From IMG/VR virus record IMGVR_UViG_3300021138_000003: 64,000 bases of DNA. One strand, given 5' to 3'. Origin of the DNA: an uncultured virus (IMG/VR IMGVR_UViG_3300021138_000003). Lineage: Duplodnaviria; Heunggongvirae; Uroviricota; Caudoviricetes. Position numbers and translations under genes: made by a program. Each line of letters begins with the position of its first letter. The first letter of the stretch is position 1. The notes under the pieces are model-generated. The model was not told where the DNA came from, searched no databases, and was given only the letters and a program-made list of their open reading frames with translations. Of the stretch, positions 5,694 to 61,176 are shown one piece after another.

Positions 5694-6437
5694 TTAAGGC
5701 TTCTTTTTAAGTAACATACCAGAAACCCACTCATTACCAAATGGTTTTTCTTTAGCACAGACTGCTATTACCCCATTATTATACCACTTGTTTCCCAGTG
5801 TAGTGGGTTTCTGGTTTAATCTTCCGTTAGTCCATCCCTCTGGGCATTCTTTAAGAAATCTGGTCTCTATGCCGTTATTGTACCAACTTCTTTCAGAATT
5901 CGTTTTTGCTCGGCGAATGCCTGAAGCCGTTTTCACGGCAGCTGAATGGACCTTTCCATACATCGGATTTAACTCTCCAACATATTTCTCCTTTCGGAAA
6001 TCTGAAATTTTTTTCTTTGTTTCAGATGATAATGTTTTACCTTTATGTGATTCACTAATTTTATTTTTAAATTCGATCGATCGGGATATACCTTTTAATT
6101 TGTGACTTATTTTAGATTTATGTTCATCTGATAAAGGACCAAATTTTTTCCCTTTATTGATACTGCCGCCTGATCCTTGTTCTAAAGTTAAATTGGCCCA
6201 CATGGTGCTATTAACTATATCCCATAATTTACTATAATAAATTCCCCATTCGGTTACTTCCTGAGCGGTTGCACATTCTTTTAAAATTTCTGTAGTTACA
6301 TCATATCCATGCTTTTTGATATGATAGGTCCAACGTTTTCCAGATCCTCGATATTTGTGCGGATCTTTTGATTCTGTTTTTCCGAGATATTTTAACCCAG
6401 TTTTATTGTGAGTTTTGACGTACAAATAAATAGTCAT
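5694..6437 (-). CDS. Free-standing GIY-YIG homing endonuclease with NUMOD3-like and WYNNG repeats
   Basis: IYLYVKTH...KYLGKT, YRGSG, HKSKIS/ETKKKIS/NPMYGKVHS repeats; start at MTIYL with SD AAGGA. Confidence 0.85.
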   Translation of the reverse strand: MTIYLYVKTHNKTGLKYLGKTESKDPHKYRGSGKRWTYHIKKHGYDVTTEILKECATAQEVTEWGIYYSKLWDIVNSTMWANLTLEQGSGGSINKGKKFGPLSDEHKSKISHKLKGISRSIEFKNKISESHKGKTLSSETKKKISDFRKEKYVGELNPMYGKVHSAAVKTASGIRRAKTNSERSWYNNGIETRFLKECPEGWTNGRLNQKPTTLGNKWYNNGVIAVCAKEKPFGNEWVSGMLLKKKP

Positions 6438-6494
6438 GCTGATAGTTCCTTTATAACCGTTAGTGTCCTTGGGTTTTGCCGAACCGCGAAGGAC
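6438..6494 (-). ncRNA. Conserved structured RNA leader of homing endonuclease gene (copy 1)
   Basis: Shares P1-CGC-P2(GGC loop)-C-P1'-CUAA..AUCAGC-AUG architecture with 41171-41225 and 53809-53863, with compensatory changes. Confidence 0.75.
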
Positions 6495-6501
6495 TTTTTT
6501 G

Positions 6502-6530
6502 TTGACTTGATAAAACAAAAATTGTATAAT
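6502..6530 (+). promoter_or_regulatory. sigma70-like early promoter
   Basis: TTGACT-17nt-TATAAT. Confidence 0.8.
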
Positions 6531-6567
6531 ATATTTATATTTTAACACAGATATAGAAAGCAACTTT

Positions 6568-7077
6568 ATGACCACTACCCGAGCAACCCTTTTTCTTGAT
6601 ATGGACGGCGTAGTTGCCGACTTTGACGGCTATGCAAGCAAGGTCCTCGGACAGCCTGCTCCAGATGGTCGCTGGCCCGACGAAGTTTGGTCTAGCATTA
6701 TCCGCGATCCTCGCATCTATGGACTGCTTGAAAAGACCAAAGAAGCAGATGCGCTAGTCGAATACTGTCGTTACCTTAGGGATACACGTAATTACAAACT
6801 CCTGTTCCTAACTGCTGTACCCAAGGGTAACGATGTTCACTGGGCATTCTACGACAAGGTGCTATGGGGCCAAAAGTATTACCCGGATATTCCTGTTCAC
6901 TTTGGTCCGTTTGCCAAGAACAAAAAGGATCACTGCAAGACCGGTGATATCCTGATCGATGATAAGCCCAGCAATATCATTGAATGGGAAAATGTTGACG
7001 GTAAGGGAATCTTGCACAAAGGTGATCTTTTAGAAACCTTGGATATTCTTAAGGGCATTGTTCAAGGCAATGACTAA
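6568..7077 (+). CDS. HAD-family 5'(3')-deoxyribonucleotidase (NT5C-like)
   Basis: LDMDGVVADF, LTA, ILIDD. Confidence 0.85.
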   Translation: MTTTRATLFLDMDGVVADFDGYASKVLGQPAPDGRWPDEVWSSIIRDPRIYGLLEKTKEADALVEYCRYLRDTRNYKLLFLTAVPKGNDVHWAFYDKVLWGQKYYPDIPVHFGPFAKNKKDHCKTGDILIDDKPSNIIEWENVDGKGILHKGDLLETLDILKGIVQGND

Positions 7078-11595: not shown

Positions 11596-12310
11596 AGGTA
11601 AACTGCAAATTCCTGCTGCTAAGAAGGCAGCAACTCCGCCAATTCCGGTGCCGCAGACACCGCAGCCTGTGGGCAAGCAACAAACTCCACCGAGTGTTAT
11701 GATTCTTGTTCCAGCAATGGAAATGGTTAATGCTGAGTTTGCTCAGCATCTTGCAATGGCGTGTGCAAATCTTGTCGCTAATGGCGTTAGGATTAACTGT
11801 GCATTTAACATCGGAAGTGTTATCACGATTGCTCGTCGTAATCTAACTGACATTTTCATGAAGAGCGACTTTGATTTTGCTTGGTGGATCGATAGCGACA
11901 TGAAGTTTCCAATCGATGCTCCTCTCAAGCTTCTAAAGCGTGGTGTGCCACTAGTTGGTTGTAACTATCGTCGTCGCCGTTTTCCTAATCCAGGTTTTAC
12001 TGGAATGATGGGTTCGCCCGGTGCATTCACTGAGCTCGTCACTGACGACAATAGTCCTGCGATGCAGGAAGTAGACGTATTGCCACACGGTTGCGTAATG
12101 GTACATCGTTCAGTTTATGAAAAGATTCCACAGCCGCACTATCTACAGGATTTTGTTCCTGAAATGAATCTCGAAATTGGCGAAGATATCTACTTCTGTC
12201 AGAAGGCTAGAGAAAATGGTATTCCTGTTTGGTGCGATCACGAATTGAGCAAGGAAATTGCCCACATCGGTATTTTCCACTTCAATTATAATCTGTCAGT
12301 ACCACAGTAA
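11585..12310 (+). CDS. Glycosyltransferase-like protein (GT-A fold)
   Basis: ARRNL, WIDSDM (DxD), GEDIYFC, IAHIG. Confidence 0.7.
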   Translation: MKNKGKLQIPAAKKAATPPIPVPQTPQPVGKQQTPPSVMILVPAMEMVNAEFAQHLAMACANLVANGVRINCAFNIGSVITIARRNLTDIFMKSDFDFAWWIDSDMKFPIDAPLKLLKRGVPLVGCNYRRRRFPNPGFTGMMGSPGAFTELVTDDNSPAMQEVDVLPHGCVMVHRSVYEKIPQPHYLQDFVPEMNLEIGEDIYFCQKARENGIPVWCDHELSKEIAHIGIFHFNYNLSVPQ

Positions 12311-21442: not shown

Positions 21443-22222
21443 CTAAGACCATCTGGACGTAATCATACCTTTAATCCATCCTTTAGATATGTAGTCTTCT
21501 AAATTTTCTCGGGATATTCGAAGATTCTCGGTACCGTTGTTTATCCATGTTGCACCTTTTTTAACAGGTGCCCATTTCTTTTTAATCCAACCATTTGATA
21601 ATTTTGCTGTTAACTCGCCAATCTCGCACAAACTATATTCATCCATTTCGGCCTGATAAATCCAAACTTTTCCTTGAGTTGGAGATCTAGGAAGTCCTTT
21701 TTTCCAGCCTTCATTAATATAAGCAGACAACTTATTTGGAGATATCATTTTCTTTTCGGTACCTCTATAAACCCAAATGGTATCTGTTGTAGAAGACATA
21801 TTCCTACCTATTATCCATCCTTCTTTTAACATTTTTTCTACCGCATTAGGATGAACAGCGCATCGTTCATTTGTTTCCGAATGATGTAAATGTTTCAATC
21901 CGGTACTCCCTTTATTATAACCACCATAGCCACCTCCTACTATATTATAAACATCTGATCTTTTTAAAAAATCAAGAGTTACTATTTCCTTTTCTTTAGC
22001 AAACATTTCTTCCGGAGTTTCAAAAATGTATAATACCTCTTTTTTAAAAAATTCTCTTCCATATTTTTCTATTGCACGATTTATGTTAGTTCCTGAACCA
22101 CAATAATCATCATTTAGATTATCTGTAGAATGAGCACCTATGTAAAATTTATTGTTCATTAAATTGGTAGTTTGATAAACGGTGTGGAATTTTCTTTTAT
22201 TTTGATGCTTGGTATTTGCCAC
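21443..22222 (-). CDS. Free-standing GIY-YIG (Seg-like) homing endonuclease
   Basis: VYQTTN...FYIGAH, YCGSG, AIEKYG, YN..GG; repeated GW..G / WI modules. Confidence 0.85.
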   Translation of the reverse strand: MANTKHQNKRKFHTVYQTTNLMNNKFYIGAHSTDNLNDDYCGSGTNINRAIEKYGREFFKKEVLYIFETPEEMFAKEKEIVTLDFLKRSDVYNIVGGGYGGYNKGSTGLKHLHHSETNERCAVHPNAVEKMLKEGWIIGRNMSSTTDTIWVYRGTEKKMISPNKLSAYINEGWKKGLPRSPTQGKVWIYQAEMDEYSLCEIGELTAKLSNGWIKKKWAPVKKGATWINNGTENLRISRENLEDYISKGWIKGMITSRWS

Positions 22223-22223
22223 G

Positions 22224-22252
22224 TTGACTTTCCTTAGATAATTCTGTATAAT
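22224..22252 (+). promoter_or_regulatory. sigma70-like early promoter
   Basis: TTGACT-17nt-TATAAT. Confidence 0.75.
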
Positions 22253-22285
22253 ATATTTATGTGTTTGCTTGTAAAAGGATTAATT

Positions 22286-23302
22286 ATGACTATTAAACGT
22301 GTGGGTTTTTGCTGCAAGTGGATTGATCGACCTGATCAGGTTGATGGTATCAAACCCACTGACGATTGTAAGAAATACAACACAGGCGGCACTACTGTGG
22401 CCTGGCTTAATCGACAAAAGCGTGATGTTGCAGAACAAAAACTTTGGGATTTGATGGAACAAAACATCGAATCTATTCGCAAGCTAGTCAAACGAGTAGG
22501 CACCTTAGATGATAATCTCCGCATGGTGCGCATTAGCAGTGACATTCTTCCTGTTTATACTGAGTCTACTTGGGGCTATTTCTGGTTGCGTCCTGATGTA
22601 CGCAACTACTGTGAAAAGCATTTCTCTGCGGTTGGTGATATTGCTCGTGATAGTGGTGTACGCCTTTCTATGCATCCTGGCCAATTTACAGTGTTAGCCT
22701 CTGATAATGCTGATATTGTAGATCGTAGTATTGCAGAATTTGAATACCATGTAGACATGGCTCGCTGGATGGGCTATGGTAAGACCTTCCAGGACTTTAA
22801 GATCAATGTACATATTGCAGGTCGACAAGGTCCTGCAGGCATTCGTCGAGCATTGGCTCGTATGACACCCGAGGCTCGTAATACTCTTACTATCGAAAAC
22901 GACGAAATGACCTGGGGTATTGAGGATAGTATAGAACTAGTTAACGATTGTGCGCTAGTTTTAGATATTCATCATCATTGGATCAAGACAGGAGAATACA
23001 TTGAAAATACTGATGACCGCGTTAAAAGGGTTATTGATAGTTGGCGCGGTCTCCGTCCTGCTTGTCATTTCTCAGTTTCACGCGAAGACTTGCTCGTTGG
23101 ACACTGCGGGGACACTCGACCCGATCTTAACGCATTGCTAGAGACTGGATACAAAAAGGGCAAACTTAGAGCCCATTCTGATTTTTACTGGAATAAATCT
23201 GTAAATGAGTGGGCTCTAAGTTTTAATAATGATTTTGATATAATGTGCGAATCAAAAGGTAAGAACTTGGCCAGTTTTGCACTAGCCAAGTCCATTACTT
23301 AG
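22286..23302 (+). CDS. uvsE: UV-damage endonuclease (UVDE/UvsE)
   Basis: RISSD, RLSMHPGQFTVL, TIENDE, LDIHHH, AHSD, MCESK. Confidence 0.9.
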   Translation: MTIKRVGFCCKWIDRPDQVDGIKPTDDCKKYNTGGTTVAWLNRQKRDVAEQKLWDLMEQNIESIRKLVKRVGTLDDNLRMVRISSDILPVYTESTWGYFWLRPDVRNYCEKHFSAVGDIARDSGVRLSMHPGQFTVLASDNADIVDRSIAEFEYHVDMARWMGYGKTFQDFKINVHIAGRQGPAGIRRALARMTPEARNTLTIENDEMTWGIEDSIELVNDCALVLDIHHHWIKTGEYIENTDDRVKRVIDSWRGLRPACHFSVSREDLLVGHCGDTRPDLNALLETGYKKGKLRAHSDFYWNKSVNEWALSFNNDFDIMCESKGKNLASFALAKSIT

Positions 23303-37975: not shown

Positions 37976-38731
37976 TTAGTCGTCTAACTCCTTATAGATT
38001 GATAAAATTTCCTTAACCGCCGGGTGACGTTCGATATCTTTTGCTTGAAATTGCACGATATCGATCATCTTGTGGCCTGAATGAGTGCGTAAACGACTCA
38101 CAAAGTCTAATAACCCGTTTGTTTCGGGTCTATCTGCCTGTTGTAGATCTCCTGTTACAATCATTCTCGAGTTTTCACCGATACGTGTTAGTAACATTTT
38201 CATCTGACTTGGTGTTGCATTTTGCATTTCGTCAGCTACAATGTAAGCGTTCTTGAATGTGCGCCCACGCATATAAGCAAGAGGACTAATTTCAAGAAGA
38301 CCATTTTCTAACATGGAAGTAATTTCTCGTGGATGATAGTATTCTTTGAAAACATCAAATATTGGACGAGTCCATGGTTCCATTTTCTGTTCCAGTGTGC
38401 CTGGTAGAAATCCATGTTCTTCATCGACAGATACAGCCGGCCGTGTAATGACTATTTTGTCAACCACCCCCTCTTTGAATTGCTTGATGGCATGCTGTAC
38501 TCCAAGCATAGTCTTACCGGTACCTGCTGGCCCGATGGCAAAGACTATGTATTTTCGTGAGTTTCGAAGAGCCTCAATATATGTTTCCTGGCTTAGATTG
38601 CGAGGAACAATATTAACGTCTTTCTTCTTTTTAACATAATGATTGAATTCGATAAGGTTTGGTGTCTCATCGCGCTGCGAATAAGCATTGTTGGCACCAG
38701 TGTTGCGTTCACGCCTTCTTGGTTTAGACAA
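37976..38731 (-). CDS. phoH: PhoH-like ATPase
   Basis: GPAGTGKT, TRPAV, GFLPG, YMRGRTF, DEMQN, TGD; TTG start with SD GGAG. Confidence 0.95.
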   Translation of the reverse strand: MSKPRRRERNTGANNAYSQRDETPNLIEFNHYVKKKKDVNIVPRNLSQETYIEALRNSRKYIVFAIGPAGTGKTMLGVQHAIKQFKEGVVDKIVITRPAVSVDEEHGFLPGTLEQKMEPWTRPIFDVFKEYYHPREITSMLENGLLEISPLAYMRGRTFKNAYIVADEMQNATPSQMKMLLTRIGENSRMIVTGDLQQADRPETNGLLDFVSRLRTHSGHKMIDIVQFQAKDIERHPAVKEILSIYKELDD

Positions 38732-38844
38732 ATCGCATCTCCTAAAGTAGATGACCTGCACACTTAATTATCTATATTTTTTAAAATCCTAATCAAATGC
38801 CGAAATTCGGAATCGCATAAATACCTTGCCAAGAGAGAACCCAT

Positions 38845-39387: not shown

Positions 39388-40120
39388 ACTTGTCGAAGGT
39401 CTTCGTAAAGATGACCTAAAGGACATGATCGACCATCTGTTTACTATTGATCAATATCAAAGTAAAATGGGTGAAGATAAGGATACACTTGTATTAAGAT
39501 TTCGTGCAGCCAGCAAAGAACCTGCTATCGATCTAATGGAATTCATTGAAAAAGGTTATTCATTTGTTCTCGATGCTGATACCAGCTCAGGTGAAGAAAA
39601 GGATGGCAGTTATAGCGTATTTGTCGAACTCGAAAGAACCGAAAACGCTGCTGAAGAAATTAAAGATCTGCTAAATGGTATCGGTCAACTATGCGGGTGT
39701 TCTTCATGGAAATTCCGCTGGTACAGAGATATCGAAGGTCACACCTTCGATGTAAAGACCGCTCAGCAAATAATTCCATTAACTCCAGAAGCATATGAAT
39801 CTAGAGTCGGTGCTTCCGAGGCAGAAGAAATTTCTGAATTCTTTGACCAGGGTGCAATCGACGATATCACTGTAGAAGATAGCATTGTTACATTTAGGAA
39901 ACCTTTTGCAGAATCGTTGTCTGCTAGAGTAATCGCGATAGGGGATTACAATGTGCTTAAAAATGCGCTGCGAGGCGGCCTACAGCTTGACGAATCTAGT
40001 CGCAGTCAAGTAACCTATCTAAACAAGTATCTAGGCAATTACGACATTAATAAAATAGAAAATCATTTCTTGATCAGAAATGGCAGTCGTGCTATAATAC
40101 TTTCTAAGGAACGCTGGTAA
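39350..40120 (+). CDS. Hypothetical phage protein
   Basis: EGLR..DL, IDQYQSKMG, DL.EFIEKGY. Confidence 0.75.
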   Translation: MNQYHKHQLKGCKLVEGLRKDDLKDMIDHLFTIDQYQSKMGEDKDTLVLRFRAASKEPAIDLMEFIEKGYSFVLDADTSSGEEKDGSYSVFVELERTENAAEEIKDLLNGIGQLCGCSSWKFRWYRDIEGHTFDVKTAQQIIPLTPEAYESRVGASEAEEISEFFDQGAIDDITVEDSIVTFRKPFAESLSARVIAIGDYNVLKNALRGGLQLDESSRSQVTYLNKYLGNYDINKIENHFLIRNGSRAIILSKERW

Positions 40121-40204
40121 ACTACGCACATTAAAATAAATAAACAACCGCGGCGATTTATATCCATGCGGATATCACCATTTAATCAATAGGGAAGGTA
40201 TGAA

Positions 40205-40600
40205 ATGGGTAAAGAAGTACTTGAACACAAGCATCTTATCGTCAGAGCAGAGTTAAATAATCCACCACAATGCGCCGAAGCAATTCAAGACTGGATGAAA
40301 AATCTAGTGGATCAAATTGGCATGAAAATTTTAATGGGCCCCTACGCTGTATATTCTGACATGGTCGGTAATCGCGGACTGACCGCCGTGACTATTATTG
40401 AGACTAGCCATATAAGCGTTCATGTTTGGGATGAATGCGAACCTGCATTAATGCAAATGGATGTTTACACTTGCTCTGAATTGAACATTAGCGATGTATT
40501 TCAAGCCATTGCTCCTTTCGAGCCTGTTAAGACTGAATACAAATTCATTGACCGAGAACATACTCTCACGTTGCTCGAGCAAGGAAAACAAGAATTATAA
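40205..40600 (+). CDS. speD: S-adenosylmethionine decarboxylase proenzyme
   Basis: GLTAVTIIETSHISVHVW, DVYTC. Confidence 0.85.
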   Translation: MGKEVLEHKHLIVRAELNNPPQCAEAIQDWMKNLVDQIGMKILMGPYAVYSDMVGNRGLTAVTIIETSHISVHVWDECEPALMQMDVYTCSELNISDVFQAIAPFEPVKTEYKFIDREHTLTLLEQGKQEL

Positions 40601-41170
40601 TTTTTTCTTGCAATGGTCGTTATGCCATCTAGTTATATTTCCAATGTTACTTTGTTTACCACAATGTTTGCAAACCGAAATATGACAAGAGGCATGGCGA
40701 CCATCAGCAAGCATTTCTTTTTGTAAGTTGCCGCCGACCCAGTGGTGCGTTCCATCGGCTACACGTTTTCTATTTGAAGTTCTCTGGATTTCACCACCTA
40801 TGAAATTATGAGTTCCTGATTCAATATTTTTTCTTCTAGATTCTTCTTGCCTTTTCAGAGTTTCTTGAGAAATGTTTTGCTTCAAAAAGTTATGCTTACC
40901 TGCATCTATTCTCCGTGCATTACTTAATTTTGCAATTTTACTTTTTTCAGTCGAAGAGAGTAAATTTTTCATTCTAAAAGCAATTAATCTGCAGGCGCCA
41001 TAATCGCCTTGTCGAAAATGTATCTCATAGTGTTCTTGTAATGTTACTGACATTAAATTTTTTGGGTCGTTATTTAATTTATTACCATCTATGTGATGAA
41101 TTTCATTCCCTTCGGGAATAGGACCATAGTGTTTTTCATAAACTTGTCTGTGATTACTATAAATATTCAT
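40595..41170 (-). CDS. Free-standing HNH homing endonuclease
   Basis: HRQVYEKHYGPIP...IHHIDGNKLNN...NL...EH; GTHNF repeats; C-terminal CKHC..HNDHC. Confidence 0.9.
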   Translation of the reverse strand: MNIYSNHRQVYEKHYGPIPEGNEIHHIDGNKLNNDPKNLMSVTLQEHYEIHFRQGDYGACRLIAFRMKNLLSSTEKSKIAKLSNARRIDAGKHNFLKQNISQETLKRQEESRRKNIESGTHNFIGGEIQRTSNRKRVADGTHHWVGGNLQKEMLADGRHASCHISVCKHCGKQSNIGNITRWHNDHCKKKL

Positions 41171-41225
41171 GCTGATACTCCTTTGCAGTATTAGAATGAG
41201 TGGGAATGCCAGTTCCGCGACTCAT
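41171..41225 (-). ncRNA. Conserved structured RNA leader of homing endonuclease gene (copy 2)
   Basis: AUGAGU-CGC-GGAA-CUGGCA-UUCC-C-ACUCAU-U-CUAAUACU-GCAAAGG-AGUAUCAG-C-AUG. Confidence 0.8.
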
Positions 41226-41228
41226 AGA

Positions 41229-41240
41229 TATTTATAAATA
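41229..41240. promoter_or_regulatory. Overlapping divergent T4-type late promoters
   Basis: Palindrome TATTTATAAATA gives TATAAATA on both strands (HNH gene leftward, spanins rightward). Confidence 0.65.
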
Positions 41241-41263
41241 CCTAGAACAAAGGAGCAAGTACT

Positions 41264-41749
41264 ATGTGGTTATTACATTTATTACCAATGGGGCTAATTG
41301 CTATTATTGTTCATGGAATTTTACTTTTAGGAGTTGTTGCGTTAGCTGCTAGTTATATTGTTAGGTATATACCAACAATAGGCATTTACGCACTTCCTGT
41401 TAGGATAGCTTCGATTGCAATTTTAGTCGTTGCAGTATATTTAGAAGGTGTTTACGGTACACATATGTGGTACCAGGACCAAGTTAAAGACCTGCAGGCG
41501 GCGGTTGCAAAATCCGAAGAACAAAGTAAGACACTTAATACCGAACTTTCGACTGCAATCCAAAAAGATACTGTAACTATCAAAGATCATACAAACACAG
41601 TCCATACCGAAGTCGTAGAGAAATTAGTGCCAATTGATAAAGATTGCACCCTAGATCCAATGGTTGTCACTGTACTAAATCATGGAGCAACTTCACCATT
41701 AAATACTGCTGCAAAAGCCCAAACACCGGCACAAGGAGATCAAAAATGA
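41264..41749 (+). CDS. Inner-membrane spanin (Rz-like)
   Basis: N-terminal TM helices, coiled coil, C-terminal Cys; followed by a lipoprotein gene. Confidence 0.65.
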   Translation: MWLLHLLPMGLIAIIVHGILLLGVVALAASYIVRYIPTIGIYALPVRIASIAILVVAVYLEGVYGTHMWYQDQVKDLQAAVAKSEEQSKTLNTELSTAIQKDTVTIKDHTNTVHTEVVEKLVPIDKDCTLDPMVVTVLNHGATSPLNTAAKAQTPAQGDQK

Positions 41750-42012
41750 AAAAATCTCTAACAATACTGATGTTGATGTTATTATCCGGGTGTGCAACTG
41801 TTATTCCTGTTAAACGACATTTTCCCGAGTCTATTCCAGAATTAATGCAACCATGCCCAAATTTAAAACAGCAGCCCGATACCACTAAATTAAGTGATGT
41901 AGTCGGAACTGTAGTAGATAATTATGGATTATACTATGAATGTCAGAACAAAGATGCCAAGTGGATCGAATGGTATAAAAAGCAAAAATCTATTTTCGAT
42001 AGCGTAAAATAA
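41746..42012 (+). CDS. Outer-membrane spanin lipoprotein (Rz1-like)
   Basis: Lipobox LLSGC, Pro-rich, CP...NY..YYEC; SD AGGAG. Confidence 0.7.
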   Translation: MKKSLTILMLMLLSGCATVIPVKRHFPESIPELMQPCPNLKQQPDTTKLSDVVGTVVDNYGLYYECQNKDAKWIEWYKKQKSIFDSVK

Positions 42013-42020
42013 TTCATTTA

Positions 42021-42049
42021 TTGACTTCTGCATAACGAAATAGTATAAT
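42021..42049 (+). promoter_or_regulatory. sigma70-like early promoter
   Basis: TTGACT-17nt-TATAAT. Confidence 0.75.
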
Positions 42050-42075
42050 AAGGAAATTATACTGGATCCTCATCA

Positions 42076-42900
42076 ATGACTGACTATTATCAAATACTGG
42101 GCGTAGAACGCACAGCATCAGAACAAGAGATTAAATCTGCATATCGAAAACTTGCAATGCAACATCACCCCGACAAAGGAGGTGATATTAATAAATTTCA
42201 AGAAATCAGCACAGCATACGAAACATTAAGTGATGCACAAAAAAGAGCTGCTTATGATAATCCTGCACCTCAATATGGGCAAGGTCCTAGAGGATTCGAT
42301 TTTGGTTTCGAGGGACAAGGATTTGAAAGCATTTTTGGTCACGGAAGCCCTTTTGGAGAAATATTTGGATTTAGACAACGGCAAGCTGTAAATCAATCCA
42401 TGAGATTATCAACTTCAATTACATTAGAAGATGTATTTTATGGAAAAGAACTACTTGCAGAAGTTACATTACCTAGTGGTCGCAGTCAAACTGTAAATAT
42501 CAAAATCCCAAAAGGAATTCACGACGGTACTACATTAAAATTATCAGGAATGGGCGACGATTCCATCCAAGAGTTGCCTCGCGGTGACATTTTATTAACA
42601 ATCCATGTGCAAGATCATCCTACATTTATAAGGTCAGGTGATGATCTTGTTCAAAATTTAGAAATAAGTTGCATAGATGCGATGCTAGGCACAAATATCA
42701 CCGTCACCGACTTAGATAATATACAATTAGATACTGCAATCCCTGCAGGTATTCAGCATGATTCCATGTTAGGATTAGCAGAACGAGGTATGCCTAATTT
42801 CCATACCGGAAATAAAGGCCGATTGCTATTAAAAATTAAAATTAAAATCCCCGAACTTTCAGATATGCAAAAAGAGAATTTGAGAAAATTAAATATATGA
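42076..42900 (+). CDS. DnaJ/CbpA-like co-chaperone (no Zn finger)
   Basis: DYYQILG, HPDK, DnaJ C-terminal domain. Confidence 0.95.
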   Translation: MTDYYQILGVERTASEQEIKSAYRKLAMQHHPDKGGDINKFQEISTAYETLSDAQKRAAYDNPAPQYGQGPRGFDFGFEGQGFESIFGHGSPFGEIFGFRQRQAVNQSMRLSTSITLEDVFYGKELLAEVTLPSGRSQTVNIKIPKGIHDGTTLKLSGMGDDSIQELPRGDILLTIHVQDHPTFIRSGDDLVQNLEISCIDAMLGTNITVTDLDNIQLDTAIPAGIQHDSMLGLAERGMPNFHTGNKGRLLLKIKIKIPELSDMQKENLRKLNI

Positions 42901-43385
42901 TGATAGTGAAATTTCCTAACCCAATTTTATCAGAGCAAATGCCTGCTTTTGATTTTGAAAATCCAATTTATGACCCAGAAAAATTAGAATACGATATGCT
43001 AGATACCATGTATTCGCATGGAGGTATTGGATTAGCAGCTAATCAAGTAGGAATTAGGACCAGGGTATTTGTTATGGGTAGTAGAGAAGACCCCGACAAC
43101 GGAATGGCATTTTTTAATCCAGAAGTTATTGCAAATACAGATAATATCGAAGACCTAGAAGAAGGATGCTTGAGTTTCCCAGGAATCTATGTTAAAATAA
43201 AACGACCGACAGCAATTAAAGCGCGTTGGCAAAATTCAAAAGGCGAATCGATGGAGGGTACATTTGAAGGTTACGAATGTAAATGCTTTTTGCATGAGTT
43301 AGATCATCTAGAAGGTATTACTTTTAAAAATAGGGTAAGTCCACTAAAATGGACTATGAGCGTAAAGAAATCTAAAAGGAAATAA
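42897..43385 (+). CDS. def: Peptide deformylase
   Basis: GIGLAANQ, EGCLS, HELDHL. Confidence 0.95.
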   Translation: MMIVKFPNPILSEQMPAFDFENPIYDPEKLEYDMLDTMYSHGGIGLAANQVGIRTRVFVMGSREDPDNGMAFFNPEVIANTDNIEDLEEGCLSFPGIYVKIKRPTAIKARWQNSKGESMEGTFEGYECKCFLHELDHLEGITFKNRVSPLKWTMSVKKSKRK

Positions 43386-43386
43386 T

Positions 43387-45663
43387 ATGTTAGAACCGAA
43401 TAAGAATTTGGCATCAATTTTTGAACGAGCAATCAAACTTGCTATTAAGAATAAACACGAATATGTTACTCTAGAACATTTCTTATTCAGTATTATTTCT
43501 GATAAAGATTTTGAAAAAGTTCTAGTAGATTTTGGCACTGACGTTCCTGAACTTAAGAACAATCTCGATAATTTCATCAAAACCCAGCTCAAGGACATTG
43601 AGGTAGCTGAACTTACTGAAAAGCCACGAAAGACAAATAGCATTGAACGAATGCTAAATCGTGCATTTACTCAAGTATTGTTTAGCGGCCGCACTATTAT
43701 CGAACCCACTGACTGTTTTGTTGCTCTATTTTCTGAAAAGAAAAGTCATGCACTGCATTTTATGCGCCTTGCAGGCATTGATAAGGACAAATTTGTCGAC
43801 TTCATTAATAATGAAACCGAGCAAACTTCCGAAGCTGCTGAGGAAATCAGCAATGCTCAACTAGAAAAGATTATTGTACAATTCTGTACCAATTTAAACA
43901 ACAAAGTTAAGCAGAAAAAAATCGACCCAGTAATCGGTCGTGAAAAAGAGATAGACGATATTCTTCTTGTTCTTGCCCGACGCCAAAAGAGCAACGTCAT
44001 GATGATCGGTGAACCAGGCGTAGGTAAGACTGCAATTGCAGAAGGTCTTGCCCGTAAGATCGTCGAAGGCGATGTTCCCGATTATATCAAGGACCACACT
44101 GTTTACAACCTCGATATTAGCGGAATGCTTGCAGGTTCTAAGTATCGTGGCGATTTCGAAGAACGCCTTAAGATGGTAATTACCGCACTAGAAAAGCGTA
44201 AGAACTGCATTTTATTCATCGACGAAGCACACATGATGAGTGGTGCTGGCGCAGTAAGCAGCAGCAGTTCAAACGATATGAGCAACATGCTAAAGCCTGC
44301 GTTAACCAAAGGTACCTTAAAGGTCATTGCAAGCACTACTTGGGAAGAATTCCGTAAGCATTTCGAAAAGGATCGTGCGTTAATGCGACGATTCCAGCGG
44401 GTAGTAGTCAATGAACCTAGCGAAGAGATGGCAATTGAAATCATCAAGGGCTTGCGTAAGTATTATGAAAAGCATCACGGTGTTAAGATTACGAATCAAG
44501 CAATCACCGATGCTGTCAAGTACAGTACAAAGTATATTACTGACAAACACCTGCCAGATAAGGCCATCGACCTAATCGACTGTGCTTGTGCTCGATTCAA
44601 GGTACGCAACGAAGAAGGCGGCGTTGTCGATCACGAAGAAATCATGTTCGAAGTTGCAAAGGCTGCAAATCTTCCTGTCGAGCAGGTTGCTGCCAAGGAA
44701 AATCAAAACCTTCGAGATCTCGAAAAAAACATGAACGGCAAGGTATTTGGTCAAGATACTGCTATTGAAATTTTGCTAGACAAGATCTTCATTGCACAGG
44801 CGGGTTTGAAATCCATTAACAAGCCGATCGGTAATTTCCTTTTTGTTGGTCCTACAGGTTGTGGTAAGACTGAAACTGCCAAGGTACTTGCAGAATCTCT
44901 AGGTGTACAGCTTGTGCGCTTTGATATGAGTGAGTTCCAGGAGCAGCATAGTGTTGCTAAATTCCTCGGGTCACCTCCGGGTTATGTCGGCTTTGACGAA
45001 AATGCAGGTCAGCTCATCACTAAGTTGCAGGAACATCCAAACTGCGTGTTGCTTTTGGACGAAATTGAAAAGGCACATCCTAGTGTAAGTAACGTGTTGC
45101 TAGGTTTGATGGACAACGGTTTTGTTACAGGATCTAATGGTAAAAAGGCAGATGCTCGAAATGCCATTGTTATCCTTACTTCCAATCTTGGTGCCAGCGA
45201 TGCTGAAAAGAATGGCGTAGGATTCGGTAGTCAAGAACGCGACGGCGAAATTAATGCAGCAGTCAATGCGTTCTTTAAGCCGGAATTCCGTAATCGTTTA
45301 GATGGTATCATCCAATTCGGTAAGCTAGAGCACACTGTGATGATCCGCATTGTTAAAAAGTTCATCGATGAACTTAATGCGCAGATCAAGGAAAAAAATA
45401 TCTTTGTTAAACCCACCCCAGATGCAGTTGAATTGCTGATTAAAAAGGGATTTAATAAGAAGATGGGTGCTCGTCCGCTACATCGTACTATTGATGATCA
45501 GATCAAGAAGCCACTTAGCAAGGAAATCTTGTTCGGAAGACTGGTTAATGGTGGCATTGTAGAGATCGATACCAATGAGGACCAGTTCGTGTTTAATTTT
45601 ATCAATGTATTAGATACTACATCAGATAAAATCGCAGAAACAGTAGACGATGAAAATTCATAA
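43387..45663 (+). CDS. clpA: ATP-dependent Clp protease ATP-binding subunit ClpA
   Basis: Clp N domain, [25 protein letters not shown] loop, MGARP. Confidence 0.95.
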
Positions 45664-53207: not shown

Positions 53208-53807
53208 TTATTTTAATCGAGTTCTAGGTAGCATCCCAGAAACCCACTCATTGCCAAATGGTTTTTGTTTAGCACAAACTGCTATAACTCCATTATTGTA
53301 CCATTTGTTTCCTAATGTAGTAGGTTTCTGGTTTAATCGTCCTTTTGTCCATCCCTCTGGACATTCTTTAAGAAATTTAGAATCTTTTCCATTATTGTAC
53401 CAACTTCTTTCAGAATTTGTTTTTGCCCGGCGTATACTCGAGGCTACTTTTACACTATCCGAATGTGTTTTTCCAAACATACCATTTCTATTACCCTTTC
53501 GAATTTCAGATAATCTTTTTAATGTCTGATCAGAAAATTTAAGACCCGAAGCGCCTTCGCCGCCGTCAGTTTTATTGATTAGAATTCCAGTGTTATTATC
53601 TTTTCTGCCGTACCATCGAATGTATCGACGCTCAATTGCAAGAGCTCCTAATTCAGTCAGATTTTGTTCAAGAAATACAATTCTAGATAAATCCTTCGGA
53701 GGACGATGGTGTTTGTGATTTTGAAATGCCCGCATTTCTTTTCCCTTTCCGATATAATAAGGGGAACCATCTCTGCGTATATAGGCATATACATAATAAA
53801 TATTCAT
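53208..53807 (-). CDS. Free-standing GIY-YIG homing endonuclease with NUMOD3-like and WYNNG repeats
   Basis: YYVYAY.R.DG.PYYIGKG, E...I..YGR, L.N.TDGGEG, NGMFGKTHS. Confidence 0.9.
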   Translation of the reverse strand: MNIYYVYAYIRRDGSPYYIGKGKEMRAFQNHKHHRPPKDLSRIVFLEQNLTELGALAIERRYIRWYGRKDNNTGILINKTDGGEGASGLKFSDQTLKRLSEIRKGNRNGMFGKTHSDSVKVASSIRRAKTNSERSWYNNGKDSKFLKECPEGWTKGRLNQKPTTLGNKWYNNGVIAVCAKQKPFGNEWVSGMLPRTRLK

Positions 53808-53808
53808 T

Positions 53809-53863
53809 GCTGATACTCCGCATAAGTATTAGAGTAGTTGGATACGCCAATATCGCGAACTAC
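53809..53863 (-). ncRNA. Conserved structured RNA leader of homing endonuclease gene (copy 3)
   Basis: GUAGUU-CGC-GAUA-UUGGCG-UAUC-C-AACUAC-U-CUAAUACU-UAUGCGG-AGUAUCAG-CA-AUG; TATAAATA 5 nt upstream. Confidence 0.8.
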
Positions 53864-53948
53864 ATCATTATTTATATCATCTATTGACTTCTCTGTGGAT
53901 ATATAGTAATAAACGTTTCTATATTATTTAAAGGATTATAAATACAGT

Positions 53949-57486: not shown

Positions 57487-57623
57487 TGGAAAATAAAATG
57501 ATAAAAGAAGAAAGAGAATTTCTCTGCGAATCGTGTATCGATATCGATTATTGCACTACACGTTGCAAACTCCAAGAACAATTAAGTGAAGATGTAGAAG
57601 TCATTCGGGAGGAATCTGAATGA
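57486..57623 (+). CDS. Small Cys-rich protein
   Basis: CESC...C...C; overlaps polB start (ATGA). Confidence 0.45.
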   Translation: MENKMIKEEREFLCESCIDIDYCTTRCKLQEQLSEDVEVIREESE

Positions 57624-59251
57624 GTTACGTTGACGCACGATGGGACCGCGACAATGATGTCGTGCAAGTCGTAGAGCGCGACCCAAAATTAGGTCGCATC
57701 TACCAAGAATATCCGGCAAGATACGTGTTCTATTATCCAGATCAAAAAGGTAAGCACACAAGCATTTTCGGAGATCCGTTAAGCAAAGTAGTTGCTAAAA
57801 ACTGGAAAGAATATACCAAAGAACAAAAGATTCATAGTGGTCATAAGCTGTTTGAGAGTGACATTAATCCAGTATTTCGGTGTCTAGAAGAGAACTATCT
57901 AGGTCGAGACGAATCTAAACTCAACGTTGCATTTTGGGATATCGAGGTGGACTTCGATCCTGAACGAGGATATGCAAGTCCCGACGATGCGTTTATGCCA
58001 ATTACCGCAATAGCAGTTCACCTACAATGGCTAGATACATTAGTATGTTTGGCTGTTCCACCTAAAACCTTAACTATGGCGGAGGCGCAGGAGTTAATCA
58101 AAGATATTCCTAACACAATTCTATACGAAACTGAAGCAGAAATGTTAGACACATTTCTAAATCTAATCGAAGATGCAGACGTGCTTAGTGGTTGGAACAG
58201 TGAGGGATTTGATATGCCCTACACTGTGAATCGAATCATTAAAACGTTAAGCAAGGAAGATACTCGCAGATTGTGTTTGTGGAATCAATTTCCAAAACGT
58301 CGTGAATATGAAAAGTACGGAAAAGCTGCCGTCACTTATGATATTTCAGGGCGTGTACACCTTGATAGTCTCGAACTTTATCGTAAGTATACATACGAAG
58401 AACGTCATAGCTATCGATTAGATGCTATCGGTGAAATGGAAGTCGGTGAAACTAAAACGGTATACGAAGGCACACTTGATCAGCTTTACAACAATGACTT
58501 CCGAAAATTCATTGAATATAACCGGCAGGACACTGCACTACTCGATAAGTTAGATAAGAAATTAAAATTTATCGATCTTGCGAACTCGATTGCACACGAA
58601 AACACCGTTCTATTGCAAACAACAATGGGCGCTGTTGCTGTTACAGAACAGGCAATTATTAACGAAGCCCATAGACATGGTCTAATTGTTCCAAGTCGCA
58701 CACGCAAAGATGATCGTGGCGATACGCAGGCCGCAGGTGCATACGTTGCATATCCCAAGAAGGGATTGCATGAATGGATTGGGTCGATGGATATTAACTC
58801 ACTGTATCCATCAGCAATTCGTGCGCTGAATATGGGTCCAGAAACAATTATCGGACAGCTACGACCAGATTATACTACTCCGGAAATTGAAGCAAAAATG
58901 GCTCGAGGAATGAGCTTTGCTGCTGCGTGGGAAGGCAAATTTGGTAGTAATGAATACGAATTTGTCATGAATCGAGACAAAGCCCACGATATCATTGTCG
59001 ATTGGGAAGACGGATCGACTGATGTGCTTAGTGGTGCTCAAATTTACGATGTAATTTTCGAAACTAACAAGCCGTGGATGATCAGTGCCAATGGAACTAT
59101 CTTTACCTACGAAAAGGAAGGTATTATTCCAGGTCTTCTAAAACGTTGGTATGCGGAGCGGCAATCATTACAGGCCGAACTGAAGTCATATATTGAACTT
59201 TCGTCCGGAATTGACATTGATGATCAATTTATAGAGTCATTGACAATATAA
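57620..59251 (+). CDS. Family B DNA polymerase, N-terminal half (exonuclease + motif A)
   Basis: ExoI DIE, ExoII WNSEGFD, ExoIII YNRQD, motif A DINSLYPS; ends after first fingers helix. Confidence 0.95.
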   Translation: MSYVDARWDRDNDVVQVVERDPKLGRIYQEYPARYVFYYPDQKGKHTSIFGDPLSKVVAKNWKEYTKEQKIHSGHKLFESDINPVFRCLEENYLGRDESKLNVAFWDIEVDFDPERGYASPDDAFMPITAIAVHLQWLDTLVCLAVPPKTLTMAEAQELIKDIPNTILYETEAEMLDTFLNLIEDADVLSGWNSEGFDMPYTVNRIIKTLSKEDTRRLCLWNQFPKRREYEKYGKAAVTYDISGRVHLDSLELYRKYTYEERHSYRLDAIGEMEVGETKTVYEGTLDQLYNNDFRKFIEYNRQDTALLDKLDKKLKFIDLANSIAHENTVLLQTTMGAVAVTEQAIINEAHRHGLIVPSRTRKDDRGDTQAAGAYVAYPKKGLHEWIGSMDINSLYPSAIRALNMGPETIIGQLRPDYTTPEIEAKMARGMSFAAAWEGKFGSNEYEFVMNRDKAHDIIVDWEDGSTDVLSGAQIYDVIFETNKPWMISANGTIFTYEKEGIIPGLLKRWYAERQSLQAELKSYIELSSGIDIDDQFIESLTI

Positions 59252-59920
59252 TCGTAATTGTTCAAGTGACGAAACGAAAAGAAAATTATCAACCAGTTTT
59301 TGTTTTTTGTAAATCCTTTCTAGATACCAAGGCTTGTTAATGGTGCTTATTTCAATATATAAATTTTTACTTTTGATATATGCATCACATTCTTTTTTTG
59401 AATTATTTGGATATTTTTTATGAAGTTGTATATCGTCACTACCATATATAGACATCAAATATTCGCAACAATCACGTTCTATTTGCGAATAATAAGTTCT
59501 CCCATTTTCAGTAACAGGTATACTCCAGGTGGGACGCAGGACACGAGGTTTGCATTCAAGACACCTAACGGTTTTGCGCAATGCTCTATCGAGAGTTGTA
59601 GTGATACAATTCCCACACAAATGAGTTAGTTTTATCAAAGAATATGAATTAATGTATTCATTACTATCTGAAAAACTCCAGCCTATATTTTTAAGTTGTT
59701 GTTGAACAATCGATAAAGGTTTACGAATACGAAGTTTATAACAATGTCTACATTCTTTACCGTCTCTGAGAACACCGGGACGTGTCCTCCAGACATTGTT
59801 ACAAACAAGACATAAATGATCAATAGGAGTATTCATATTAATATATCGATCAAGCGGAACAACTTTTCTAGGTTCAATCATATTGGTATATTGTTCATGT
59901 GTATATTTTATATTAGACAT
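59237..59920 (-). CDS. Putative homing endonuclease (Zn-ribbon repeats + PD-(D/E)xK-like nuclease) inserted antisense within polB
   Basis: CLVC, CRHC, H.CG, CLEC; SQIE...CDAY...YIEI nuclease-like motif; AT-rich. Confidence 0.7.
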   Translation of the reverse strand: MSNIKYTHEQYTNMIEPRKVVPLDRYINMNTPIDHLCLVCNNVWRTRPGVLRDGKECRHCYKLRIRKPLSIVQQQLKNIGWSFSDSNEYINSYSLIKLTHLCGNCITTTLDRALRKTVRCLECKPRVLRPTWSIPVTENGRTYYSQIERDCCEYLMSIYGSDDIQLHKKYPNNSKKECDAYIKSKNLYIEISTINKPWYLERIYKKQKLVDNFLFVSSLEQLRLYCQ

Positions 59921-59967
59921 ATTTCTCTCGCTAAATAGTTTCATATTTAGCATTTAAAGGAAAAGAA

Positions 59968-61176
59968 ATGCAAGCAATAGAAATTAAAAAATTAATTAAA
60001 GAAAAAAACGTCAAAGAATTACGCAAGTTGATACACGCAGGAATTTTAACTGTTAACGACGGGAAAATTTCTTTAACTGATAAAAATTATGCCAATGCTC
60101 AAATAGAATATTGGGATAAACGTCAGCTAGTTAAGAAGATTAACTTGAACAGTTTGTATGGTGCCATTCTTAACGCAGGTTGCAGATTCTTCGACAAACG
60201 TATCGGTCAAAGTACCACGCTCACTGGTCGTCGTATTGCTCGCCACATGGCAGGTAAGGTTAATGAATATATCACCGGAGATTACGATCATATTGGTAAA
60301 AGTGTAATTTACGGTGACACTGACTCTGTTTATTTCAGTGCATGGCCTATTTTGAAAACTGATATTCAAAAGGGATTAATTCCTTGGAACAAGGACACAG
60401 TTATTCAACTATACGATCAGATTTCAGACGAAGTAAACTCTACATTTCCACAATTCATGCTAGATGATTTTCATTGCCCTAAGTCGCGCGGCGAAGTTAT
60501 TAAAGCAGGTCGTGAAATTGTTGCAGACCGTGGATTGTTTATTACAAAGAAGCGTTATGCAGTTCGTTATTACGATAAGGAAGGCAAGCGTCAAGACAAG
60601 GATGGCAAGGAAGGCAAAGTCAAAGCAATGGGCTTAGATCTCAAGCGTTCAGATACTCCGGAATTCATGCAAGACTTCTTAAGTGAAATCCTCGAAAGAG
60701 TACTAGACGGTGCTCCTGAGCAGGAAATCCTAGATCGCATCAGCGAATTCCGAACTGCATTTAAGGCCAGACCAGGCTGGGAAAAAGGATCGCCAAAGCG
60801 AGCAAATAACATTGCAGAATATCAGGCCAAAGAAAAGAAGTACGGTAAGGCAAATATGCCCGGACACGTTCGTGCTAGTATTAATTGGAACACCCTTAAA
60901 ACCATGCATGGTGACAAATACAGTCAGCAGATTGTCGACGGTATGAAAGTTATTGTCTGCAAGGTAAAGGATAATCCGCTCGGCTATACTAGTGTCGCAT
61001 ATCCGGTCGACGAACTTCGGTTGCCGCCATGGTTTCGAGAACTACCATTTAATCATGCCGATATGGAAACAGCGATTATTAACAACAAACTAGATAATCT
61101 TATCGGCGTGCTAGACTGGGATTTAGAATCAACTACACAAAACAATACATTTGGTAGTTTATTTTCGTTTGATTGA
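59968..61176 (+). CDS. Family B DNA polymerase, C-terminal half (motifs B and C, thumb)
   Basis: QLVKKINLNSLYG, YGDTDS, KKRYA; own SD AAGGA. Confidence 0.95.
   Translation: MQAIEIKKLIKEKNVKELRKLIHAGILTVNDGKISLTDKNYANAQIEYWDKRQLVKKINLNSLYGAILNAGCRFFDKRIGQSTTLTGRRIARHMAGKVNEYITGDYDHIGKSVIYGDTDSVYFSAWPILKTDIQKGLIPWNKDTVIQLYDQISDEVNSTFPQFMLDDFHCPKSRGEVIKAGREIVADRGLFITKKRYAVRYYDKEGKRQDKDGKEGKVKAMGLDLKRSDTPEFMQDFLSEILERVLDGAPEQEILDRISEFRTAFKARPGWEKGSPKRANNIAEYQAKEKKYGKANMPGHVRASINWNTLKTMHGDKYSQQIVDGMKVIVCKVKDNPLGYTSVAYPVDELRLPPWFRELPFNHADMETAIINNKLDNLIGVLDWDLESTTQNNTFGSLFSFD

Follow-up and report, generated by a model that had tools for sequence, protein, structure and literature searches.

Facing late-promoter-like elements and a covarying two-hairpin module at the 5' end of unrelated homing endonuclease genes suggest a portable antisense RNA cassette in T4-type phages

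The IMG/VR virus record IMGVR_UViG_3300021138_000003, analysed here as one stretch of 64,000 nucleotides (the window), comes from an uncultivated large phage of the T4 type, whose DNA polymerase is 51% identical to the enzyme of PA5oct-like jumbo phages. Three homing endonuclease genes (HEGs) on the minus strand of the window are each headed by a copy of the same ~57-nt module of two hairpins. Copy A (6438-6494, minus strand) lies before ATG 6437 of a GIY-YIG-type gene (5694-6437; TIY...YLG type with NUMOD3). Copy B (41171-41225, minus strand) lies directly before ATG 41170 of an I-TevIII-like HNH gene (40595-41170; Pfam HNH_3, 2.3e-16), whose protein has 32% identity with I-TevIII of RB3 by tblastn. 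Copy C (53809-53863, minus strand) is separated by a spacer A at 53808 from ATG 53807 of another GIY-YIG-type gene (53208-53807; YVYAY...YYIGKG type with NUMOD3). The two NUMOD3-bearing enzymes are of different kinds: a protein identical to the 5694-6437 product (L002) matches phrog_314, and relatives of the 53208-53807 protein match phrog_15526 and phrog_314. The covariation of the module, the strand of its fold and the promoter-like elements that face each other across it suggest that it is probably the template of a short antisense RNA that restrains the nuclease.

On the sense strand each copy reads P1(6 bp)-CGC-P2(4 bp)-6-nt loop-P2'-C-P1'-N-CTAA...P3...ATCAGC-(N)-ATG, with P1 starting at 6494 (A), 41225 (B), and 53863 (C). 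P1 and P2 pair perfectly within each copy, and their sequences differ between copies. P3 encloses the Shine-Dalgarno (SD) sequence in all three. An earlier reading made from the sequence alone (the sequence-only reading) had described the same module before these three minus-strand genes, with P3 around the SD, and the places, the strand and the architecture of all copies agree with it. Covariance model R1, run with filters off, gives 72.0 bits to copy A, 67.7 bits to copy B, and 64.5 bits to copy C, and the next best score anywhere in the 64 kb is 11.3 bits. A structural scan of the window finds the same three P1 starts only, plus one unrelated weak candidate at 11767. The fixed-register pattern matches twice where 0.11 matches are expected, and none of 100 shuffles reaches two; copy A is missed by this pattern because its loop GGC is shifted by one base. 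Chance is excluded as the origin of the three window copies.

The module is not confined to the window. A pattern scan of IMG/VR found at least 121 loci, which hold 93 unique copies. Because this pattern fixed several blocks, copies were also gathered through proteins. Among 80 loci of relatives of the 53208-53807 GIY-YIG protein, collected with one N-terminal peptide seed among the seeds used, the module stands directly 5' of the open reading frame (ORF) in 79. Among 80 loci of I-TevIII-like HNH relatives, collected with an alignment query and with neither peptide seed N-terminal, 48-49 carry it, and the 31 loci without it have plain leaders with a late promoter and an SD. The alignment query was used in place of a single-protein search with the window HNH protein, which gave five partial C-terminal matches, none with a cassette. 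When the 61 downstream ORFs with the most sequence, among 83 of at least 100 aa, were compared with PHROGs, 56 matched endonuclease PHROGs of several families, three matched phrog_15526/10829 only, and two matched none. The proposal that the motif travels with free-standing HEGs irrespective of nuclease family is therefore upheld by these 56 ORFs, and the module heads hundreds of unrelated HEGs on uncultivated phage contigs. In 596 Gb of prokaryote genomes the same pattern matches 23 times. One match is a true copy, on a contig of 682 bp from a metagenome-assembled genome, and another, at 20 bits, is marginal.

Eight of the 93 unique cassettes precede complete ORFs of only 8-75 aa (L017, L025, L026, L030, L069, L070, L084, and L085). 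The short ORFs behind these intact cassettes look like decayed or frameshifted HEGs.

That the module is a genuine covarying structured element, as the sequence-only reading had it, is confirmed by shuffle tests and by RNAalifold on family alignments. Across the 93 unique IMG/VR copies P1 and P2 pair at nearly every position with many different stem sequences. Alignment A1 (95 copies) has 359 doubly changed cells compared with 100 +/- 10 in shuffles, none of 500 being as high, and the signal is lost when the partners are slid by one to three columns. Alignment A4 (45 unique copies obtained via HNH proteins) has double changes in 15 of 19 pairs and 170 doubly changed cells compared with 52 +/- 5, again with none of 500 shuffles as high. 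On the antisense strand of 110 copies RNAalifold recovers both hairpins, and 13 of the 16 predicted pairs are compensatory. Its consensus includes an extra G:C pair flanked by bulged Gs.

The wider family changes the anatomy in several respects. The loop GGC, taken at first to be invariant, is not conserved, the commonest loops being CGCCAA, CGTCAA, and CGGCAA. Nor is CGC/C an unpaired internal loop. In the protein-anchored sets the middle G of CGC pairs with the single C, since a change of CGC to CAC goes together with a change of the C to T (GC 46, AU 6, AC 2 of 54; GC 33, AC 9, AU 3 of 45). The sense core of copy B, for example, reads P1-C-G:C-C-P2-loop, followed by P3 with the SD. With the middle G paired, two invariant single-base bulges remain, and these and short linkers are the conserved unpaired bases. 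Of the blocks CUAA and AUCAGC, which had been thought invariant together with a constant A.C mismatch, the part CTA...CAG at the base of P3 holds, including the A.C, and the rest varies; in the protein-anchored sets the pairs next to CTA...CAG covary. The hairpins themselves are highly diverse. Among the 146 copies, 124 different sequences occur for the 3' hairpin and 114 for the 5' hairpin region (named as on the antisense strand), and the three window copies all differ. A common 5' hairpin serving as an "address" for cross-silencing between cassettes was considered and is rejected for now, as the 5' hairpin is as diverse as the 3' hairpin (114 and 124 of 146).

The sequence-only reading had treated the structure as a leader folded on the sense strand, and this part has to be reversed. 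On the sense strand A.C mismatches far outnumber G.U pairs in three sets of copies. Among the unforced cells of the pattern set 1287 of 1390 are paired on the sense strand and 1365 of 1390 on the antisense strand, with 93 A.C and 15 G.U. The GIY-YIG-anchored set has 932 of 1034 cells paired on the sense strand (90.1%) and 1025 of 1034 on the antisense strand (99.1%), with 96 A.C and 3 G.U, and the HNH-anchored set has 756 of 853 (88.6%) and 848 of 853 (99.4%), with 93 A.C and 1 G.U. The constant A.C mismatch of the sense strand is an invariant G.U on the antisense strand, and the frequent alternation of C and T opposite a constant A in P3 reads there as G.U or A.U. Folding energies point the same way. 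The antisense minimum free energy (MFE) is the lower one in 144 of 146 copies, with a mean of -17.1 kcal/mol compared with -12.0 kcal/mol for the sense strand. In the window the antisense MFE structure is the consensus fold in all three copies; the sense MFE structures of copies A and C lack P3, and that of copy B has an interrupted P3. Since the sense A.C cells become G.U on the complement and the energies agree, the selected fold is placed on the strand opposite to the HEG.

The module is bracketed by two sequences that resemble T4 late promoters and face each other. On the sense side, 127 of 146 copies have TAAATA ending 3-6 nt upstream of P1. On the other side, 83 of the 93 unique copies have TATTTA, the complement of the late core TAAATA, beginning 3-8 nt downstream of the A of the start codon, and an antisense late-promoter core is present in 132 of the 146. 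Both elements occur in 116 copies, the antisense one alone in 16, the sense one alone in 11, and neither in 3. The inner element is kept within codons 2-4 across three reading frames, as x-I-Y (x-Ile-Tyr), Y-L (Tyr-Leu), or I/L-F (Ile/Leu-Phe). Codon 2 is always NNT and its amino acid is variable. The distance between TATTTA and GCTGAT is held at 4-6 nt because an optional spacer base between ATCAGC and ATG compensates. Such an antisense core signal is rare elsewhere: it was found in 4 of 567 flanking ORFs used as controls and in 3 of 84 window ORFs, these three being the cassette HEGs. T4 late promoters are described as sitting at -13 to -6 (PMC1524935). When TATAAATA is taken at these positions, the predicted outward start is the G opposite the last base ahead of the ATG, and the predicted starts on both strands are a G preceded by T.

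In copy B the antisense late-promoter-like TATAAATA lies at 41158-41165 (plus strand) inside HNH codons 2-5, and the sense TATAAATA lies at 41229-41236 (minus strand) with a predicted start at G41223, 2 nt inside P1. In copy C the antisense core TAAATA is at 53797-53802 (plus strand) inside codons 2-4 (AAT ATT TAT), and the sense TATAAATA is at 53869-53876 (minus strand) with a predicted start at G53863, the first base of P1. In copy A the antisense late-promoter-like AATAAATA is at 6425-6432 (plus strand) inside codons 2-5 (ACT ATT TAT). There is no TAAATA beside P1 of this copy, the nearest sense TATAAATA (6532-6539) being ~38 nt upstream of P1. The late promoter reported 3-5 nt before P1 in two copies is thus present as TATAAATA ending 3 nt (B) and 5 nt (C) upstream. 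Note that the minus strand of the window has only three TATAAATA sites, all upstream of cassette-headed HEGs and two adjoining P1. The plus strand has six, one of which is the inner promoter of copy B.

The sense TATAAATA of copy B also overlaps a plus-strand TATAAATA (41233-41240) that faces the gene at 41264-41749. The palindrome TATTTATAAATA (41229-41240) yields TATAAATA on both strands, toward the HNH cassette and toward gene 41264-41749, and looks like a bidirectional late promoter.

With the start placed in this way, the predicted antisense RNA is exactly complementary to the leader, including the SD, over its whole length between the P1 end and the last base ahead of the ATG. The predicted RNA of copy B (41171-41237, plus strand) starts at G41171, as set by TATAAATA at -13 to -6, and has a 5' hairpin (41172-41194) whose loop CCUUUGC is anti-SD, a 3' hairpin (41196-41225) with two bulged Gs, and a U/A-rich tail. 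Its MFE structure is the consensus two-hairpin fold at -17.3 kcal/mol (z -2.8). The predicted RNA of copy C (53808-53875, plus strand) would start at 53808 or 53809, and its MFE structure is again the consensus fold, at -12.8 kcal/mol. That of copy A (6438-6500, plus strand) would start at G6438 and consists of two hairpins and UUUUUU (6495-6500).

The 3' end of the predicted RNA, its last hairpin and the tail, looks like a terminator, though a moderate one. The antisense 3' hairpin has a mean energy of -10.0 kcal/mol, and at least five U occur within the next 9 nt in 115 of 146 copies, in runs that are mostly 3-4 long. In the 19 copies that lack a sense promoter, which partly belong to one clade, the U runs have a mean length of 4.8 compared with 3.4 and are typically AUUUUUGUU. 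Where the sense TAAATA is present, the spacer after it is A-rich with GT (T at -1 in 91% of 107), and it differs in this from 34 other TATAAATA sites in the same loci. Copy A offers the plainest order of elements: inner promoter, two hairpins, a clean U6, and then the -35 box of the neighbour. This neighbour has an early-type promoter, TTGACT (6502-6507), 17 nt, and TATAAT (6525-6530), facing the gene at 6568-7077. The GTCAA seen upstream of some copies is the complement of the -35 (TTGAC) of such a neighbouring early-type promoter and was rejected as part of the cassette.

We propose, with a probability of roughly 0.6, that these elements make up a portable two-promoter cassette from which a ~60-nt antisense RNA, predicted here from sequence, is transcribed and restrains the nuclease. 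The cassette would span ~85 bp, with two T4-type late promoters facing each other across the ~57-bp segment. Transcription of the HEG mRNA would begin from the outer promoter, at the first base of the segment or close to it, and the inner promoter, built into HEG codons 2-4, would read outward from the G that complements the pre-ATG base. If both promoters fire and the outward RNA ends at the U-rich, terminator-like tail, the antisense RNA would be ~60-65 nt long, with a 5' hairpin whose loop is the SD complement and an 11-bp second hairpin with two invariant bulged Gs. Since it is fully complementary to the HEG 5' untranslated region (UTR), it would pair with the leader, probably beginning loop to loop, and the duplex would block ribosome binding, be exposed to RNase III, or both. 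A potentially toxic nuclease might in this way be repressed late in infection, when templates are many, by a cis-antisense brake acting like IS10 RNA-OUT. A more elaborate version of the proposal is tentative and rather doubtful in its full form. In it the promoter-antisense RNA-promoter unit would be self-contained and horizontally shuffled and would act as a copy-number-dependent brake on the HEG, the bulges and the G.U would be a site for the nuclease or an RNA chaperone, and the diverging stems would keep the RNAs private. Such privacy of the antisense RNA of each HEG would resemble the incompatibility groups of plasmid antisense RNAs.

Several points weigh against the antisense proposal. 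Both RNAs, antisense and sense, are predictions from the DNA, and the promoters are consensus matches only, the late sigma factor of these phages being unstudied. Timing alone would give no switch, because both predicted RNAs use late promoters. The copies are kin, so that p-values and shuffle tests overstate their independence, and two of the alignments, A2 and A4, were produced by fitting to the model. Pairing alone does not account for the invariant G.U, the two bulges, and GCUG...UAG. The tail is usually interrupted (ACUUUAUUUAU), its longest U run is 3 in 85 of 146 copies, it begins 2 nt past the stem after AC, and its U-richness is partly the complement of the sense promoter. A consensus terminator scan of 40000-42500 did not call the copy B hairpin.

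The upstream gene raises another question. Its orientation could be determined in 141 copies: 96, among them the three window copies, have it on the opposite strand, and 45 have it on the same strand. With so many divergent neighbours the outward RNA could also serve the neighbouring gene, and the cassette could be a leader or insulator that keeps neighbouring phage genes expressed or insulated after insertion of the HEG. Either the inner promoter with its structured leader would read into the neighbour, or the hairpin and U-tract would stop transcription that comes in through the inverted HEG, or both. T4 HEGs are described as holding promoters that serve host genes downstream of them, and retention of the HEGs is favoured by this (PMC2988022); an RNA that serves the neighbour would fit a tail that is only a moderate terminator. 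The explanation is nevertheless an unlikely one. The inner promoter is retained as often with a co-oriented neighbour (39 of 45) as with a divergent one (84 of 96), which weakens the idea that it merely drives the neighbour, and in the co-oriented class the RNA would run antisense into the 3' end of that gene. U-rich tails are also commoner with co-oriented than with divergent neighbours (40 of 45 and 69 of 96; Fisher p = 0.03), and in the window each neighbour has its own early-type or late promoter beyond the hairpin, between it and the start codon. Equal retention and the excess of tails in the co-oriented class make it more likely that the function lies in the cassette itself than that a promoter is lent to the neighbouring gene.

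The same structure might act on the mRNA instead, as a two-hairpin 5' UTR leader that controls stability and hides the SD until a protein, a ligand, or the ribosome opens it. A sense late promoter would start the mRNA at P1, P3 encloses the SD, Watson-Crick pairs serve both strands equally, and the invariant bulges could be a protein site; hairpins that sequester the ribosome-binding site (RBS) are, moreover, the known control of T-even HEGs (PMC2988022). This role is slightly less probable again than an outward leader or insulator. The SD lies within the loop and 3' arm of a sense P3 that has one invariant A.C and one frequent C.A mismatch, the non-canonical cells are A.C over G.U in every set (93:15, 96:3, and 93:1), the sense fold is the weaker one in 144 of 146 copies and misses the consensus in two of the three window copies, and a leader would leave the frame-independent TATTTA in the ORF with no role. 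The ligand sensor or small ribozyme that the sequence-only reading had offered can be set aside: no riboswitch or ribozyme family of Rfam matches, and the conserved unpaired bases amount to two bulges, beside the G.U, with no pocket. The asymmetry of the wobble cells cannot by itself separate RNA from DNA, as G.T wobbles are tolerated in single-stranded DNA too, and hairpins formed on one DNA strand during replication or recombination could play a part in homing or in replication. Loci of HEGs are, moreover, hot spots of recombination. A role as a single-stranded DNA structure is nonetheless very improbable, because promoter-like elements that bracket the segment at fixed spacing with predicted starts at its ends, a U/T-rich tail after the hairpin, and a 5' loop that is the SD complement are expected of transcripts, not of DNA hairpins. 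An antisense RNA from a two-promoter cassette is the reading that we retain.

Not every HEG of the window has the cassette. Two further minus-strand HEGs, 21443-22222 and 59237-59953, are without it by sequence and by covariance model. The first is a SegE-like GIY-YIG HEG (phrog_314 at 1e-35) with a GTG start, and its 5' end adjoins the complement of a TTGACT-17-TATAAT promoter that faces the gene at 22259-23302. The second is an HNH ORF situated between the two ORFs of the DNA polymerase gene, of which 57620-59251 is N-terminal and 59968-61176 is C-terminal. Near-perfect promoters of the sigma-70 type (GTTGACT, 17 nt, TATAAT) stand just outside two HEG 5' ends, at 6502-6530 and ~22225-22255, and GTTGACT-17-TATAAT is probably the early-promoter consensus of the source phage. 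Among the HNH relatives without a cassette, L276 and L278 have, ~60-25 nt before the ORF start at 1489, TATAAATA and then a perfect hairpin that is rich in GC and has runs of A and T at its flanks. It is terminator-like on both strands and may be an unrelated solution to the same problem. Auxiliary genes of the phage, at 37976-38761 (minus strand), 40205-40600, and 43387-45663 of the window, code for PhoH, a speD-like AdoMet decarboxylase, and a Lon-like ATP-dependent protease of 758 aa (phrog_4871).

Cultured phages were also searched for the module. Megablast of window positions 40000-44000 against phage sequences returned no match, nor did blastn with a 106-nt cassette. Model R1 finds no copy in S-SRM01, B23, ACG-2014f, and S-N03, though related GIY-YIG genes are present there, and its matches in PA5oct and Phosso were inspected and rejected as junk. 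The lone copy found in a cultured-phage record is in Pseudoalteromonas phage vB_Psh_XG4 (PP712099 56144-56208; L222 1487-1565; UNVERIFIED_ORG). It is divergent, with GUA...CAC at the base of P3, the A.C kept, and no TATTTA after the ATG.

That the module belongs to no named Rfam family, as had been supposed, is borne out by Rfam 15: no family, RNA-OUT included, matches at gathering score in the window, and in three representative loci the motif has no match at E <= 1. Full-text literature searches returned no description of such a cassette. A 2023 catalogue of ~10,000 IMG/VR candidate structured RNAs lists DNAVirus_1557, which has 58 nt and 59 sequences, every one from freshwater Caudoviricetes, lies within 25 bp upstream of GIY-YIG genes, and has 1 covarying base reported (PMC10690425). 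By this description alone, DNAVirus_1557 may be the same motif. In the material consulted from that paper it is a table entry without strand analysis, promoters, or function.

CfrI of cyanophage S-PM2 is the only HEG-linked phage antisense RNA found in the literature searched. It is a ~225-nt RNA antisense to the HEG F-CphI and to psbA (PMC2984593, PMC9602691). Like the RNA proposed here, it is encoded by a T4-like phage, shares part of its length with a free-standing HEG, and extends outward into the gene upstream. It is ~4 times longer, however, and the accounts consulted link it to psbA and do not present it as a portable cassette. Model R1, run over the whole S-PM2 genome, finds no copy, the best match (E = 2.2) being at an unrelated place.

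Knowledge of how HEGs are restrained in the phages that carry them is limited to a few T-even cases, in which every gene has a hairpin of its own. I-TevI, I-TevII, I-TevIII, segB, and mobE of T-even phages and Aeh1 are described with RBS-sequestering hairpins and late promoters (PMC2988022). The cassette shares with them a phage of the T4 type, a late-promoter-like element immediately upstream, an SD within a putative sense-strand hairpin, and an expected limit on nuclease expression. The sequence-only reading had compared it with the I-TevI hairpin, and the likeness holds only in part. It fails at the transcript. In the T-even genes late transcripts lose the inhibitory arm, as that source describes them, whereas here the late start precedes the whole structure, and the predicted late transcript holds both P3 arms because TAAATA ends 3-6 nt before P1. 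The cassette differs also in that its fold is selected on the other strand, in that a second, outward promoter-like element lies inside the ORF, and in that one homologous cassette is found across families in place of hairpins idiosyncratic to each gene. Here a single homologous, covarying element heads hundreds of nuclease genes of several unrelated families in uncultured large phages.

The fold of the cassette points to an antisense RNA, a strategy used by insertion sequences. In IS10/Tn10 the pair RNA-IN/RNA-OUT involves a 69-nt antisense RNA with a 35-nt overlap (PMC5006887). There, as proposed here, the gene of a selfish element (a transposase there, a nuclease here) has two facing promoters at its 5' end and a short stable antisense RNA complementary to the translation initiation region, and a block of ribosome binding that grows stronger at high copy number is expected (PMC5006887). 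The art200 RNA of IS200 is a further antisense analogue (PMC4513863). The likeness to IS10 and IS200 is one of proposed mechanism, with no homology. Unlike those of IS10, the putative promoters of the cassette are of the phage late type, the overlap would be the whole ~57-nt leader and not 35 nt, the predicted RNA is made of two hairpins in which bulges and a G.U are invariant, and the cassette is common to unrelated nuclease families of lytic phages. If the antisense reading is true, it adds a widespread regulatory RNA family to lytic phages, where antisense RNAs are barely documented, and a small set of promoter and antisense parts already diversified by nature. Selfish nucleases would then carry their own brake as a portable unit, much as IS10 carries RNA-OUT.

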